Below are positions 31,594 through 36,268 of a DNA stretch of 64,000 bases, piece after piece. The notes under the pieces were generated by a model. The model was given only the letters and a program-made list of their open reading frames with translations, did no database searches and was not told the origin of the DNA. The stretch lies in the NCBI RefSeq assembly GCF_003790525.1, contig NZ_CP033635.1. One strand, given 5' to 3'. Source of the DNA: Escherichia coli (lineage in GTDB: Bacteria; Pseudomonadota; Gammaproteobacteria; Enterobacterales; Enterobacteriaceae). How positions within the stretch are numbered: the stretch's first letter is position 1; every line of letters begins with the position of its first letter. Made by a program: the position numbers and the translations under genes.

Positions 31594-32484
31594 ATGATGT
31601 TTAAGCAATACCTGCAAGTAACGAAACCAGGCATCATCTTTGGCAACCTGATCTCGGTGATTGGGGGATTCCTGCTGGCCTCAAAGGGCAGCATTGATTA
31701 TCCCCTGTTTATCTACACGCTGGTTGGGGTGTCACTGGTTGTGGCGTCGGGTTGTGTGTTTAACAACTACATCGACAGGGATATCGACAGAAAGATGGAA
31801 AGGACGAAGAATCGGGTGCTGGTTAAAGGCCTGATCTCTCCTGCTGTCTCGCTGGTGTACGCCACCTTGCTGGGTATTGCTGGCTTTATGCTGCTGTGGT
31901 TTGGCGCGAATCCGCTGGCCTGCTGGCTGGGGGTGATGGGCTTTGTGGTTTATGTCGGCGTCTACAGCCTGTACATGAAACGCCACTCGGTCTACGGCAC
32001 ATTGATTGGTTCGCTCTCCGGCGCAGCACCGCCAGTGATCGGCTACTGTGCGGTAACCGGCGAGTTCGATAGCGGCGCAGCAATCCTGCTGGCTATCTTC
32101 AGCCTGTGGCAGATGCCTCATTCTTATGCCATCGCCATTTTCCGCTTTAAGGATTATCAGGCCGCAAACATTCCGGTACTGCCGGTGGTGAAAGGCATTT
32201 CGGTGGCGAAGAATCACATCACGCTGTATATCATCGCCTTTGCCGTTGCCACGCTGATGCTCTCTCTTGGCGGTTACGCTGGGTATAAATATCTGGTGGT
32301 CGCCGCGGCGGTGAGCGTCTGGTGGTTAGGTATGGCCCTGCGCGGTTATAAAGTTGCTGATGATCGAATCTGGGCGCGCAAGCTGTTCGGCTTCTCTATC
32401 ATCGCCATCACTGCCCTCTCGGTGATGATGTCCGTTGATTTTATGGTGCCGGACTCGCATACGCTGCTGGCTGCTGTGTGGTAA
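31594..32484 (+). CDS. cyoE: heme O synthase (protoheme IX farnesyltransferase)
   Basis: ORF 31549..32484; start [14 protein letters not shown] gives 296 aa; UbiA-family prenyltransferase. Confidence 0.95.
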
Positions 32485-32498
32485 TACAACCTCTCTAT

Positions 32499-32527
32499 AA
32501 AAAAGGTGCTACGGCACCTTTTTTATT
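32499..32527 (+). terminator. rho-independent terminator of the cyo operon
   Basis: AAAAAAGGTGC-TACG-GCACCTTTTTTATT. Confidence 0.85.
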
Positions 32528-32537
32528 GTCTGAGATC

Positions 32538-32564
32538 AGAGATACGGCTAATAACCGTATCTCT
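32538..32564. promoter_or_regulatory. palindromic operator candidate 1 (AGAGATACGG-N7-CCGTATCTCT)
   Basis: Perfect 10-bp-arm inverted repeat just upstream of the -35 box. Confidence 0.5.
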
Positions 32565-32593
32565 TGACAGAGTGAGCATATGCACATAAATTA
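32565..32593 (+). promoter_or_regulatory. sigma70-like promoter of the DUF1778/GNAT operon
   Basis: TTGACA, ~16-17 nt spacer, TAAATT; sits between two related palindromes. Confidence 0.55.
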
Positions 32594-32598
32594 ATCAC

Positions 32599-32613
32599 AC
32601 GGTTGATAGCCGT
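32599..32613. promoter_or_regulatory. palindromic operator candidate 2 (ACGG-N7-CCGT, shares GCCGTAT half-site)
   Basis: Second related inverted repeat just downstream of the -10 box. Confidence 0.45.
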
Positions 32614-32668
32614 ATTATGCATGAGATCGACTCCCTACGATTTCATTCAGTTAATCAAAGAGGTCATA

Positions 32669-32980
32669 ATGCCTGGAAAAACAGTCGCTCTACCCGATAT
32701 CGATAAAACGCTGAAAAATGCGCGGGTTGAACTCAAAACCAGCCCCGACGCCAAAAACAAACTTCGTGAAGCTGCGCAAGCCGTTGGGGTAGATTTAAGC
32801 GCTTTTATTTTGAGCGCAGCTATGGAACGCGCCGAAAGTGTGCTTGATAACCAACGTCGCCGTGAGCTTTCGAATCAAAGCTGGGAACTGATGAACCAAC
32901 TCATCGCTGAACCTGCTCAACCGACGCTCGCCCTCAAGGCGTTAATGAAAAGGAAAAACAGCGATGGTCGACAAGCATGA
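32669..32980 (+). CDS. DUF1778 (TacA/AtaR-like, RHH) antitoxin of a GNAT toxin-antitoxin pair
   Basis: ORF 32603..32980; Met MPGKTVALPDID preceded by AAAGAGG Shine-Dalgarno; ~103 aa; 17-bp overlap with downstream GNAT gene; resembles TacA/AtaR-type antitoxins. Confidence 0.75.
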   Translation: MPGKTVALPDIDKTLKNARVELKTSPDAKNKLREAAQAVGVDLSAFILSAAMERAESVLDNQRRRELSNQSWELMNQLIAEPAQPTLALKALMKRKNSDGRQA

Positions 32981-33506
32981 AGAGATTACTCTGCCCATAG
33001 TCCTCTCCTGTAATTATCAGTCTGATATTACTTATCCTGGGCAAAAACAGTTTGATTGCGGTAACCCTGTTATCGATAAATTTGTACGCGCATCGCTAAA
33101 GAAAAGTGTGCGTAATAGCGACTGTGCTGCTAAAGCTCTTATTGACAGACAAAGTGGTGAACTGATTGGCATCTGTACTTTTACGGCATATTCGCTGGAA
33201 AAACAACGCGTTTCTGGCGTCCTTCAGGGTTCACAACCTTCAGAGATTGGTGTTGTCAGATTAGTCATGTTAGGGGTAGCGCGGAAATATCAAAAGCGGG
33301 GCTTTGGTCAGGACCTACTATGTGATTTTTTTGAACATGTAAAAATAATTCACCGGGCATTACCAATTAAAGGGGTTTATCTTGATGCTGACCCTGCCGC
33401 CATTAACTTTTATACTCGCCTCGGCTTTGTTCAGCTTTCAGCGAGGCCCAATGTTTTCGGTGCTGTACCGATGTTTTTAGCGATTCAGCATATTCTCGCG
33501 GCTTAG
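32964..33506 (+). CDS. GNAT-family acetyltransferase toxin (TacT/AtaT/ItaT-like, predicted aminoacyl-tRNA acetylating)
   Basis: 180 aa; N-terminal FDCG motif; acetyl-CoA binding loop RKYQKRGFGQDLL; C-terminal FYTRLGF as in AtaT-like toxins; translationally coupled to the antitoxin. Confidence 0.75.
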   Translation: MVDKHEEITLPIVLSCNYQSDITYPGQKQFDCGNPVIDKFVRASLKKSVRNSDCAAKALIDRQSGELIGICTFTAYSLEKQRVSGVLQGSQPSEIGVVRLVMLGVARKYQKRGFGQDLLCDFFEHVKIIHRALPIKGVYLDADPAAINFYTRLGFVQLSARPNVFGAVPMFLAIQHILAA

Positions 33507-33561
33507 ATTATTATCGCCTCCGGCCAGGGCTAGTTTTGCCTCAGCCGGGGACTGAGCAGCG

Positions 33562-34497
33562 TTACCACTTTTGTTCAATTGCCCCCGCTTTCAGCAACTC
33601 CACATCCTTGCCGTTAATGGTTGCCGTTGCGGCAACGATTGTGGTCCTTACAGTTGCACAAGATTTTCGCTCAAATTCCGGTTTATAAAGAATTAGAGAC
33701 GAATTACTGGTAAATGAATCAAATATGTAATCAGTAAAGCTAATATTCAGCCGGTTTAAACCGAAAGGCGCGAAGCCAACCGTTTGGTTAATCTCCTTAC
33801 CGGATGGGCTACGAATGCTGAATGTCACGCGAAGATTGGCCACTTCGCCTAATTTATTGGTGGTGGCGAAGAGGCTATCCATGCAGGAAAAACCTTTATC
33901 TAAAAAATTATCCCGCATCCCAGAACGGGTAACCGTGATCACGGGTAACGTATCGTCAACCGTTTTTCTGTCAATCATGTCTTTTCGACATGTAGCCAGA
34001 AAGTCTTCCGGACCACCATAAATGTGGACACCTTTATCAAGATATTCCTTCGCTTTCTTACAATCTACCTCAACATACTGACCATTGGCGTACATCATGC
34101 CCAACCTGGACCATGCTAAATTCACACCGTATTGCGCGGCCTGATTAAATAGTGCATACGCTTTGGCATAATCCACCCGCACCAGCTCACCGTCGTAGTA
34201 GATACTCCCCAGCGCTAACGGAGCTTCTCTATCACCGTGTTTAGCGGCTAACTCAAACCATTTAATCGCTTCCTGAACATCAGGTTTGGTATCAAAGCGA
34301 GGCTGATAATATTCCCAGCCTAACAGGCTCTGCGCGTCGACATCTCCCAATTCAGCCATTTTATGCAGTCTATTTATAACATCGGGCGCAGGTTGACCAC
34401 CGTATATGCTGTCATACAATTCATGCGCTTTCTCGCTTGCCACCACGCATGGTGAAACTATTAGCATTAAAGAAAATAATATTCTTTTAGTTAACAT
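33562..34497 (-). CDS. secreted Sel1-repeat (TPR-like) protein with uncharacterized C-terminal domain
   Basis: ORF 33562..34557; probable start MLTKRILFSLMLIVSPCVVA (signal peptide); several Sel1-like repeats (AAKHGDREAPLALGSIYYDG, AAQYGVNLAWSRLGMMYANGQ); low GC; no K-12 counterpart recalled here. Confidence 0.65.
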   Translation of the reverse strand: MLTKRILFSLMLIVSPCVVASEKAHELYDSIYGGQPAPDVINRLHKMAELGDVDAQSLLGWEYYQPRFDTKPDVQEAIKWFELAAKHGDREAPLALGSIYYDGELVRVDYAKAYALFNQAAQYGVNLAWSRLGMMYANGQYVEVDCKKAKEYLDKGVHIYGGPEDFLATCRKDMIDRKTVDDTLPVITVTRSGMRDNFLDKGFSCMDSLFATTNKLGEVANLRVTFSIRSPSGKEINQTVGFAPFGLNRLNISFTDYIFDSFTSNSSLILYKPEFERKSCATVRTTIVAATATINGKDVELLKAGAIEQKW

Positions 34498-34903
34498 GTA
34501 TACCTTTATGTTCTCTCTGTCATATATTTCCATAATAATTAACCACCAAACATCCATTTAATGAATAAATACAGTACCATAAAGGCCCAAGTAATAAGCA
34601 CACATTTAACCTGAAACATTATCATCGATGTCACCAAATCGTTTATTTAGTGAGATAAAAATAGCATGTTCGCAAGATAAAAAATGCACATAGCAATCAA
34701 GAAATAATATTATTACTTTTGATGTAAAACTATTTAGCTTTAAGAATAATTTTTTCAACATATAGAGCATTCATTTTATGAATGCAAAATAAACATACCT
34801 GACACACAAACTATTCTCCTCTGTAATATTTTCTCATTAACACTCTGTTTACCCAACATGCGCTCCGCACTACACTATGTGGGCATTTTTTTAAGAGGTG
34901 GTA

Positions 34904-36268
34904 ATGAACGATTATAAAATGACGCCAGGTGAGCGGCGCGCGACCTGGGGTTTAGGCACCGTTTTCTCGTTGCGCATGCTGGGCATGTTCATGGTTCTGC
35001 CGGTTCTGACCACGTACGGCATGGCTCTGCAAGGTGCCAGCGAAGCATTAATCGGTATTGCCATTGGTATTTATGGTCTGACTCAGGCCGTTTTTCAGAT
35101 TCCGTTTGGCCTGCTTTCAGACCGCATTGGTCGCAAACCATTAATTGTCGGTGGGCTGGCGGTGTTTGCCGCCGGTAGCGTTATCGCTGCGCTCTCTGAC
35201 TCCATCTGGGGAATTATTCTGGGCCGGGCGCTACAAGGCTCCGGTGCGATTGCCGCTGCCGTTATGGCGCTGCTTTCCGATCTTACGCGCGAACAAAACC
35301 GCACCAAAGCGATGGCGTTTATCGGCGTGAGCTTTGGCATTACCTTTGCCATTGCGATGGTGCTTGGCCCGATCATCACTCACAAACTTGGGCTGCACGC
35401 GCTGTTCTGGATGATCGCTATTCTGGCAACAACCGGCATTGCGTTGACCATTTGGGTTGTGCCCAACAGTAGCACTCACGTACTTAATCGTGAGTCCGGA
35501 ATGGTGAAAGGCAGTTTCAGTAAAGTGCTGGCGGAACCGCGGTTGCTGAAACTCAACTTTGGCATTATGTGTCTACACATGCTTCTGATGTCTACGTTTG
35601 TTGCCCTGCCCGGACAGCTGGCTGATGCGGGGTTCCCGGCGGCTGAACACTGGAAGGTCTATCTGGCGACGATGCTAATCGCCTTTGGCTCGGTCGTGCC
35701 TTTCATTATCTACGCTGAAGTTAAGCGCAAAATGAAGCAAGTCTTTGTCTTCTGCGTCGGATTGATCGTGGTTGCGGAAATTGTGTTGTGGAACGCACAA
35801 ACGCAGTTCTGGCAACTGGTGGTCGGCGTGCAGCTTTTCTTTGTAGCGTTTAATTTGATGGAAGCCCTTCTGCCTTCACTTATCAGTAAAGAGTCGCCTG
35901 CAGGTTACAAAGGTACGGCGATGGGTGTTTACTCCACCAGCCAGTTTCTTGGCGTGGCGATTGGCGGTTCGCTGGGCGGCTGGATTGACGGCATGTTTGA
36001 CGGTCAGGGCGTATTTCTCGCTGGCGCAATGCTGGCCGCAGTGTGGCTGGCAGTCGCCAGTACCATGAAAGAACCGCCGTATGTCAGCAGCTTGCGCATT
36101 GAAATCCCGGCGGACATTGCCGCAAACGAAGCGTTAAAAGTACGTTTGCTGGAAACTGAAGGCGTCAAAGAAGTGTTGATTGCAGAAGAAGAACATTCAG
36201 CGTATGTGAAAATCGACAGCAAAGTGACGAATCGCTTTGAGGTTGAACAGGCAATTCGCCAGGCATAA
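34904..36268 (+). CDS. yajR: MFS transporter YajR
   Basis: ORF 34898..36268; start MNDYKMTPGERRATW gives 454 aa; MFS with C-terminal cytoplasmic domain. Confidence 0.9.
   Translation: MNDYKMTPGERRATWGLGTVFSLRMLGMFMVLPVLTTYGMALQGASEALIGIAIGIYGLTQAVFQIPFGLLSDRIGRKPLIVGGLAVFAAGSVIAALSDSIWGIILGRALQGSGAIAAAVMALLSDLTREQNRTKAMAFIGVSFGITFAIAMVLGPIITHKLGLHALFWMIAILATTGIALTIWVVPNSSTHVLNRESGMVKGSFSKVLAEPRLLKLNFGIMCLHMLLMSTFVALPGQLADAGFPAAEHWKVYLATMLIAFGSVVPFIIYAEVKRKMKQVFVFCVGLIVVAEIVLWNAQTQFWQLVVGVQLFFVAFNLMEALLPSLISKESPAGYKGTAMGVYSTSQFLGVAIGGSLGGWIDGMFDGQGVFLAGAMLAAVWLAVASTMKEPPYVSSLRIEIPADIAANEALKVRLLETEGVKEVLIAEEEHSAYVKIDSKVTNRFEVEQAIRQA

Follow-up and report, generated by a model that had tools for sequence, protein, structure and literature searches.

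Whether the strongly AT-rich DNA that separates a Sel1-repeat gene from yajR in this Escherichia coli genome marks the boundary of a genomic island, nucleates H-NS on acquired genes, or carries the native yajR promoter is the question raised by this locus. The original prediction entertained all three roles. It was followed up here within a 64-kb stretch of DNA (64,000 nucleotides of one strand, hereafter the window) by comparison with other genomes, and its reading of the tract as a whole proved partly supported. The compositional anomaly itself is real: GC content over 34560-34890 is 0.302, the minimum of the window, compared with 0.510 for the window as a whole. Only 0.26% of 331-bp windows are equally low or lower in GC, all of them overlapping 34384-34944, and the sole other low-GC stretch of the window (60120-60917) has a minimum of 0.314. 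Nine runs of at least four A or T bases lie in 34560-34890, and TpA steps and A/T tracts are, respectively, 2.6 and 2.2 times denser in the tract than the window average. The RefSeq gene starts at 34497 and 34904 confirm that the Sel1 gene and yajR diverge from the tract, which lies upstream of both; the predicted size of about 300 bp did not hold, as the intergenic region measures 406 bp. The features concerned are as follows.

34498-34903, 406 bp: Sel1-yajR divergent intergenic region, from the Sel1 ATG at 34497 (minus strand) to the yajR ATG at 34904 (plus strand).
34498-34807: distal AT-rich tract, ~28% GC, specific to an accessory segment; located upstream of the Sel1 gene, with homology to the DNA between yajR and sel499 in cryptic Escherichia clades.
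34808-34903, plus strand: proximal part, the native yajR upstream module, ~39% GC, homologous to the K-12 cyoE-yajR spacer and to the DNA upstream of yajR in other genera.
33562-34497, minus strand: Sel1/TPR gene, 311 amino acids, with a signal peptide, Sel1 repeats and a C-terminal beta-sandwich (Pfam Sel1, E=1e-17).
34904-36268, plus strand: yajR, MFS transporter, with the Shine-Dalgarno sequence GAGGTGG at 34895-34901.

The DNA of 32300-35100 is 100% identical to that of E. coli strain 2D, and the tract is 100% identical to that of SMS-3-5. The comparison with K-12, which had been proposed as a means of delimiting an insertion, revealed that ~310 bp of the tract is absent from K-12 and belongs to an accessory segment with a GC content of 42.5% (over 32485-34903, versus 51% for the window). 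This segment is present in 1,367-1,369 of 5,426 complete E. coli genomes (~25%), including BL21 and other B strains, HS, IAI1, SMS-3-5 and strains labelled O111; the remaining genomes have a spacer of ~148 bp, the cyoE-yajR spacer of K-12 being 148 bp. The gene order is cyoE (ending at 32484), its terminator, itaR, itaT, the Sel1 gene on the minus strand, the tract and yajR.

32499-32524, plus strand: cyoE intrinsic terminator (A6-GGTGC-TACG-GCACC-T6), read from the sequence; the last K-12-shared sequence on the left.
32525-34807: accessory segment of ~2.28 kb carrying itaR-itaT and the Sel1 gene, absent from K-12-type genomes.
32564-32592, plus strand: itaRT promoter-like site TTGACA-17-TAAATT, directly past an inverted repeat with a 9-bp stem (32541-32565).
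32669-32980, plus strand: itaR, TacA/DUF1778 antitoxin (Pfam PF08681, E=1e-17; RefSeq annotation).
32964-33506, plus strand: itaT, GNAT toxin acetylating aminoacyl-tRNA (PDB 7byy, E=1.3e-115 over all 180 residues; PMC6125619 and PMC7367177).

The toxin-antitoxin pair is the ItaRT module published for E. coli HS (Wilcox et al., 2018; PMC6125619). It fills the left half of the segment, and its genes share 17 nt, with the antitoxin gene upstream, as in an ItaRT type II toxin-antitoxin system. According to that paper, the DNA upstream of itaRT has promoter activity, which is repressed by the ItaR-ItaT complex; the passages searched contain no mention of cyoE or yajR. Unlike the itaRT promoter at 32564-32592, the AT-rich tract lies on the Sel1/yajR side of the segment and is separate from it.

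The Sel1 protein, for which the AlphaFold2 model has a pLDDT of 86, resembles secreted Sel1 proteins from host-associated bacteria and IrmA at the level of the predicted fold. It has a signal peptide and Sel1 repeats in common with EsiB/c5321 (4bwr), LpnE (6deh) and HcpC (1ouv), and its modeled C-terminal beta-sandwich is similar in fold to IrmA (5ek5), but sequence identity to these proteins is only 14-33%. Homologues of the 311-residue protein are almost all found within Escherichia. A longer reading frame of 331 residues starting at 34557 was rejected, given the RefSeq start at 34497 and a stop codon within the extension in E. albertii.

The limits of the segment can be placed closely. On the left, the K-12 alignment puts the junction at 32525, directly past the T-run of the cyoE terminator. 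On the right, the K-12 alignment is limited to ~34808-34903, at ~63-70% identity, compared with 97-98% for the flanking genes; identity of the tract with the K-12 yajR upstream region, the finding that would have told against the original prediction, is thus not seen, as the distal part is missing from K-12 and the proximal part is diverged. Two genomes with rare natural arrangements fix the junctions. In O157:H7 strain TR01, 32525-32560 is fused to 34835-34903 by a clean 2,274-bp deletion (32561-34834) that leaves both segment ends in place, an arrangement that no other complete genome shows. In E. coli BS-04 the site is empty, with a cyoE-proximal half that is K-12-like and a yajR-proximal half of the type found with the segment (island-type), which places the structural junction at ~34805-34808, inside the tract. 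The extent of the K-12 alignment and the TR01 and BS-04 junctions together divide the tract into a distal, segment-specific part and a proximal part native to yajR. Because the island-type proximal allele occurs in only 1,373 genomes, namely the segment carriers, TR01 and BS-04, the diverged haplotype block in the population extends beyond the structural junction as far as the yajR ribosome-binding site. A 19-nt direct repeat (34515 and 34819, 79% identical) that flanks the distal tract was also noted and set aside as likely to be due to chance in AT-rich DNA.

Presence in about 25% of complete genomes together with low GC content is what an attachment site or the edge of a mobile genomic island might look like, and the tract had been read as having a composition typical of island boundaries. 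Nevertheless, that reading is scarcely credible, the least probable of those considered here. There are no tRNA genes in 28-40 kb, no direct k-mer of at least 9 nt is common to 32490-32620 and 34760-34860, and neither an integrase nor a transposase gene accompanies the segment, the only genes being cyoE, itaR, itaT, the Sel1 gene and yajR. Matches to the tract in a plasmid collection were confined to records of 1.2-4.8 Mb that are evidently mislabelled chromosomes rather than genuine plasmid copies, and the position and orientation of the segment are unchanged in several Escherichia species. Nor is the segment a recent insertion; it is an old haplotype common to E. albertii and cryptic Escherichia clades. 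It would not be self-mobile, its gain, loss and exchange proceeding instead by homologous recombination in cyoE and yajR, which would explain why the island-type yajR module travels with it.

The E. coli pan-genome is known to collect accessory genes between core genes at chromosomal hot spots, where they are swapped by homologous recombination in the flanking DNA. The locus described here has the same fixed place, cyoE-yajR, and the same property of alternative contents: the site may be empty, or filled by itaRT plus the Sel1 gene, by the Sel1 gene plus a gene for 325 amino acids (E. albertii), or by two Sel1 genes (cryptic clades). Also in keeping with such hot spots, a diverged flanking allele co-segregates with the insert. 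It differs from them in that the segment is very small (2.3 kb) and devoid of mobility genes, and in that the linked yajR promoter allele is nearer to that of Pseudocitrobacter (84%) than to that of K-12 (63%).

The relatives of the segment attest to its age. In E. albertii, the order is yajR, a 410-bp tract (84% identical), the Sel1 gene, the unrelated gene for 325 amino acids and cyoE, with no itaRT. Escherichia sp. E4694, E4385 and CP057686 have yajR, a 393-bp tract, a Sel1 gene of 499 codons (sel499), the 311-residue Sel1 gene, itaT, itaR and cyoE; Escherichia sp. E4930 has the same order without itaRT. The DNA of 34535-34960 aligns at 77% identity with the DNA between yajR and sel499, and 34440-34497 matches the beginning of the 311-residue gene, so that the E. 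coli tract corresponds to the upstream DNA of a two-gene Sel1 operon elsewhere. Because sel499 is missing from E. coli (absent from all 5,426 complete genomes), the tract here abuts the 311-residue gene directly. Loss of sel499 from E. coli is favored over its gain elsewhere because sel499 is also carried by L011, a metagenomic contig that shares the architecture of these Escherichia sp. genomes, a Sel1 protein of 59% identity and a yajR module nearest to that of Pseudocitrobacter.

Two deep lineages of the tract can be distinguished: an A-type, comprising the window, the common E. coli allele (TK3889, B strains), E. albertii and MOD1-EC7003, and a B-type, comprising E. coli MFDS1019527 with about 18 others and the cryptic clades. 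A- and B-type tracts are only ~68% identical, yet itaRT is 97-99.7% identical between them. The length of the intergenic region is steady at ~390-420 bp in E. coli, E. albertii and the cryptic clades. Outside Escherichia, cyoE and yajR are neighbors in most genera, with a spacer of 150-190 bp; their spacing is ~8.9 kb in Kluyvera intermedia, and at the other Kluyvera and the Pseudocitrobacter loci no cyoE was found beside yajR in the sequence examined. These differing contents across genera identify the cyoE-yajR spacer as a recurrent site for accessory DNA. The island-type yajR module is 84% identical to that of Pseudocitrobacter faecalis and 63% identical to that of K-12, and the K-12-type module also occurs in E. 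whittamii (95%) and in Escherichia sp. E1V33 (99%); it follows that both yajR haplotypes are old or have been exchanged between species.

The suggestion that the tract may also carry the native yajR promoter was borne out by the discovery of a promoter-like module at its right edge (34822-34876) that is kept across genera. A sliding conservation profile is high over 34820-34903 and drops sharply at 34808-34820. Within this region, when the K-12 and island alleles were aligned with E. albertii, a cryptic clade and L011, three invariant blocks stood out from otherwise diverged DNA, at 34822-34841 (GTAATATTT..ATTAAC), 34846-34853 (TGTTTACC) and 34865-34877 (CCGC..TACACTA). They contribute to the following elements.

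34822-34841, plus strand: A/T-rich block TGTAATATTTnCTnATTAAC, located where the putative promoter could have an UP element or activator site.
34848-34876, plus strand: putative yajR core promoter, with a -35 hexamer TTTACC (34848-34853), a 17-nt spacer and a -10 hexamer TACACT (34871-34876).

The last two invariant blocks, with their 19 fixed bases, were used as a search pattern (TGTTTACC-N11-CCGC-NN-TACACTA), and 23 species genomes, representing at least nine genera, contained a match; in each of them it lies 57-58 bp ahead of the yajR start codon. The matched taxa include Kosakonia, Pseudocitrobacter, Kluyvera, Pluralibacter, Superficieibacter, Trabulsiella, Leclercia, Escherichia and other Enterobacteriaceae. 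By our own arithmetic, ~2 matches would be expected by chance for 19 fixed bases in ~6e11 positions. Because these loci were selected by the pattern, the invariance of the hexamers in all 23 arises by construction; the number of matches, their fixed position and the conserved A/T block upstream are free of this selection, and for K-12, E. albertii and the cryptic clades the module had been identified without use of the pattern.

Comparison across these genomes identifies the proximal part of the tract as the ancestral control module of yajR, consisting of the A/T block, a putative weak sigma-70-type promoter and the Shine-Dalgarno sequence. The putative promoter is considered weak because only 8 of its 12 hexamer positions agree with the consensus. 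The transcript would begin near 34883 with a leader of ~20 nt, and the A/T block would then fall at about -43 to -62, a location that fits an UP element or an activator site. A literature search on the yajR promoter, and on yajR, cyoE and H-NS, found nothing on this locus or on the yajR transcription start.

The distal tract presents a different picture. Comparison with relatives shows it to be the right-hand end of the old accessory segment and the upstream region of the Sel1 gene, which would be transcribed leftwards from it. In the cryptic clades, the corresponding DNA lies ahead of a compact series made up of the candidate small ORF described below, sel499 and the 311-residue gene. Overall constraint is weak. 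The distal tract is 83.5% identical to that of E. albertii, for which identity at four-fold degenerate sites is 79-80% in yajR and cyoE but 73% in the Sel1 gene, and it is 65-70% identical to B-type haplotypes, for which the corresponding values are 77-82%. Because it is diverging about as fast as synonymous sites, most of it may be unconstrained. The conservation profile is mostly low, with a single peak at ~34540-34627; identity between A- and B-types is 76% in this block and 49-54% elsewhere in the distal tract.

Candidates for Sel1 promoter elements are modest. A position weight matrix scan of seven haplotypes found no strong conserved sigma-70 promoter in the Sel1 sense, the best sites scoring low and differing among haplotypes, and promoter-like matches in 32400-35000 (7) were not above the expectation from shuffled sequences (5.5 +/- 2.1). 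The only Sel1-sense candidate that is partly kept across haplotypes, and a palindrome upstream of it, are listed below.

34729-34758, minus strand: weak sigma-70-like site TTGAAA-18-AATAGT, upstream of a candidate small ORF and the Sel1 gene; low confidence.
34767-34785: perfect palindrome GCATTCAT-TTT-ATGAATGC, with a related half-palindrome 217 bp away at 34551-34566.

The palindrome is kept in E. albertii and takes the form GTATT...AATAC in the B-type, differing by one double change that preserves pairing. When the palindrome (ATTCAT-N3-ATGAAT) and the conserved blocks were compared by eye with the consensus sequences for Fur, ArgR, OmpR, PhoP, RcsB, IHF and sigma-54, no convincing fit was found.

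Divergence that is near-neutral or faster, the low identity of A- and B-types outside a single block, junction indels such as a 9-bp duplication in B strains, and loss of the segment without obvious consequence (TR01, and the 75% of strains that lack the segment) would all be expected if the distal tract were mostly functionless spacer, a leftover of rearrangement (e.g., the loss of sel499) that has drifted to high A+T, leaving the yajR module and a minimal Sel1 promoter as the only parts of importance. This explanation is nonetheless judged unlikely: in the clades with two Sel1 genes, the tract is homologous to intergenic rather than coding DNA, its length stays within ~390-420 bp whether in E. 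coli, in E. albertii or in the cryptic clades, and it contains the conserved block and the palindrome.

The same two elements, the conserved block and a palindrome capable of forming a hairpin, in an intergenic region of this length could indicate that a small regulatory RNA or a structured leader is transcribed from the tract. This is very improbable, though somewhat less so than the mobile-island reading. Rfam gave no match at E<=1 over 32300-35100, no T-run follows the palindrome on either strand, and a consensus fold of the Sel1-proximal 160 nt from six haplotypes yielded an RNAalifold covariation term of only -0.13 kcal/mol, with a double change in just 2 of 32 pairs.

A further explanation for the conserved block is that the distal tract is partly coding, the first gene of the Sel1 operon being one for a hydrophobic peptide of 28 residues.

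34539-34625, minus strand: candidate unannotated small ORF of 28 codons plus stop (MIMFQVKCVLITWAFMVLYLFIKWMFGG), coinciding with the sole conserved block of the distal tract.

Small hydrophobic peptides encoded first in an operon, such as KdpF, and type I toxins are known. The candidate is likewise small, with one predicted membrane-spanning stretch, and is separated by 19-41 nt from the gene that follows it on that strand; it could be a small membrane protein or a leader peptide, either of which would be compatible with the best explanation of the tract given below. Besides its location in the only well-conserved distal block (76% between A- and B-types), several observations argue for translation. 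A frame of 35 open codons is kept in the window, TK3889, E. albertii, E4694, E4930, E4385 and CP057686, and the position of the stop is constant although the codon is TAA, TGA or TAG depending on lineage. In B-type genomes carrying sel499, GGAGG precedes the ATG by 8 nt, and the stop lies 19 nt before the ATG of sel499. Between the window and E4694, on the deep branch separating A- and B-types, an intact frame with equally conservative replacements arose in only 0.13% of 20,000 neutral simulations.

The frame is intact in four of six distinct lineages. Against translation, a 1-nt insertion disrupts it in MFDS1019527 and in contigs L041 and L046, and in MOD1-EC7003 it is interrupted by a stop codon. 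Shorter branches carry no coding signal (p 0.3-0.9), changes within the A-type are almost all non-synonymous with no third-position excess in the differences, and the A-type Shine-Dalgarno sequence is weak (GGTGA). Pfam and NCBIfam gave no match, a profile search of 1.84 billion representative proteins recovered only the candidate's own frameshifted alleles, and the ORF is not annotated in the RefSeq records compared. In contrast to KdpF and the type I toxins, the candidate has no family match, is broken in some lineages, and was found without an antisense RNA. A metagenome scan with the island-type yajR module yielded 14 loci, all of them shallow variants from which the coding test gains no power. 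On balance, a coding function for this block is possible but doubtful. A separate ORF of 54 codons at 34606-34770 (minus strand) was rejected, as it has no Pfam match and a 2-nt indel shifts its frame in the common E. coli allele.

The candidate ORF also enters a broader and similarly tentative proposal, in which the conserved block is a real gene for a 28-residue membrane peptide heading an Escherichia-specific operon for secreted Sel1/IrmA-like proteins, and the whole cyoE-yajR segment with its own yajR promoter is an old haplotype kept or exchanged across Escherichia and a Pseudocitrobacter-like lineage.

The last of the three predicted roles, silencing by H-NS, is plausible for the distal tract on the basis of composition. 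Xenogeneic silencing of AT-rich acquired DNA by H-NS is well established for Salmonella islands and for bgl, proU and LEE in E. coli. Like these regions, the tract is far above the genome average in A+T and located upstream of accessory genes of below-average GC content, and it has dense TpA steps, A/T runs and many weak promoter-like sites. An A+T content far above average over at least ~200 bp, as expected of H-NS-bound regions, is found at 34498-34819 (72%, versus 49% for the window). In contrast to the established cases, the tract lacks the high-affinity motif and phased A-tracts, and the segment is no recent acquisition, being old and in a syntenic position in several species. The high-affinity H-NS nucleation motif (TCGATAAATT) had no match in the tract at up to two mismatches, compared with 1.36 per kb in the window, which is a weak test; phasing of AA/TT at 10-11.25 bp was not significant, the observed power being reached by 106 of 500 shuffles, and this test is also weak. 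H-NS/StpA would coat the distal tract (72% A+T, dense TpA) and thereby quiet the Sel1 gene and incidental promoters, adjoining the yajR promoter without replacing it. Enteroaggregative strain EAEC 042 has an empty cyoE-yajR site; hns-mutant transcriptomes have reportedly been published for it. The carrier strains BL21, HS, IAI1 and SMS-3-5 offer a small, well-delimited accessory locus for the study of H-NS silencing.

Taken together, the explanation considered probable is that the tract is a two-part divergent regulatory region, of which the distal part may be coated by H-NS and the accessory segment would spread by recombination. In essence, the tract is AT-rich control DNA of an ordinary kind between divergent genes, accessory in one part and core in the other, at a hot spot exchanged by recombination. 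The importance of these findings is mainly for annotation, and they contain nothing to surprise the specialist; the possible small ORF is the sole new item and provides a concrete target for small-protein validation. A supposed island boundary resolves into two adjoining control regions, with the junction between accessory and core DNA placed within a few bases. Furthermore, the yajR promoter regions of segment carriers and non-carriers are only ~63% identical, and with such different promoter versions, E. coli lineages may not express this core transporter alike.

Within E. coli, comparison of the window with E. coli MFDS1019527 indicates that the accessory segment (itaR-itaT and the Sel1 gene in the cyoE-yajR spacer) is a sharp mosaic. 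Both itaR and itaT are 99.6-99.7% identical between the two, while identity is 87% across the Sel1 gene, 65% across the AT-rich distal tract upstream of it (34498-34807), and 96% in the native yajR module. The Sel1 gene together with its own upstream region (33562-34807) behaves as a hypervariable cassette. In MFDS1019527, the Sel1 gene is a pseudogene.

The product of the Sel1 gene (33562-34497, minus strand) is predicted with confidence to have a signal peptide and four to five Sel1 repeats and to fold into a beta-sandwich at its C-terminus (model pLDDT 86). The top solved-structure match of the beta-sandwich was E. coli IrmA (5ek5; E=3e-5, 14% identity). Cryptic Escherichia clades encode a 499-aa paralogue, which has the C-terminal part in common with the Sel1 product at ~33% identity.

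Variants were observed at the junctions and at empty sites. In B strains, including C41(DE3), a 9-bp tandem duplication (TCTGTAATA) is present at window position ~34820, on the native yajR module side, 12-15 bp from the accessory-tract junction and directly upstream of a conserved A/T block. Two rare variants of the empty site were also observed. O157:H7 TR01 retains both ends of the segment (36 bp on the left and 69 bp on the right), a deletion scar found in only 1 of 5,426 genomes. At the empty site of BS-04, the left half resembles K-12 and the yajR module is of the island type.

The distal tract contains two copies of an imperfect palindrome, and an inverted repeat lies by the itaRT promoter-like site:

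34767-34785, ATTCAT-N3-ATGAAT, copy on the junction side
34551-34566, ATTCAT-N3-ATGAAT, copy within a candidate small ORF (34539-34625, minus strand)
32541-32565, inverted repeat with a 9-bp stem, GAGATACGG-CTAATAA-CCGTATCTC

The palindrome copies are separated by 217 bp, and, on comparison by eye, they fitted none of the known binding-site consensus sequences. The inverted repeat adjoins the -35 element of the promoter-like site and may be an operator of the ItaR-ItaT complex, by which itaRT is described as being autoregulated (PMC6125619).

A second low-GC stretch of the window (60120-60917, 34% GC) spans the 5' part of a hypothetical gene:

59362-60807, minus strand, hypothetical gene of 481 aa between acpH and malZ

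In E. coli, ~1,126 of the 5,426 complete genomes carry this region, EAEC 042 among them; in the remainder, the match is limited to the malZ flank.

Outside Escherichia, no cyoE was found adjoining yajR in the DNA examined around yajR in Kluyvera and Pseudocitrobacter, including P. faecalis, and in Kluyvera intermedia the two genes lie ~8.9 kb apart. On this basis, the spacer may be an insertion hot spot beyond Escherichia as well.
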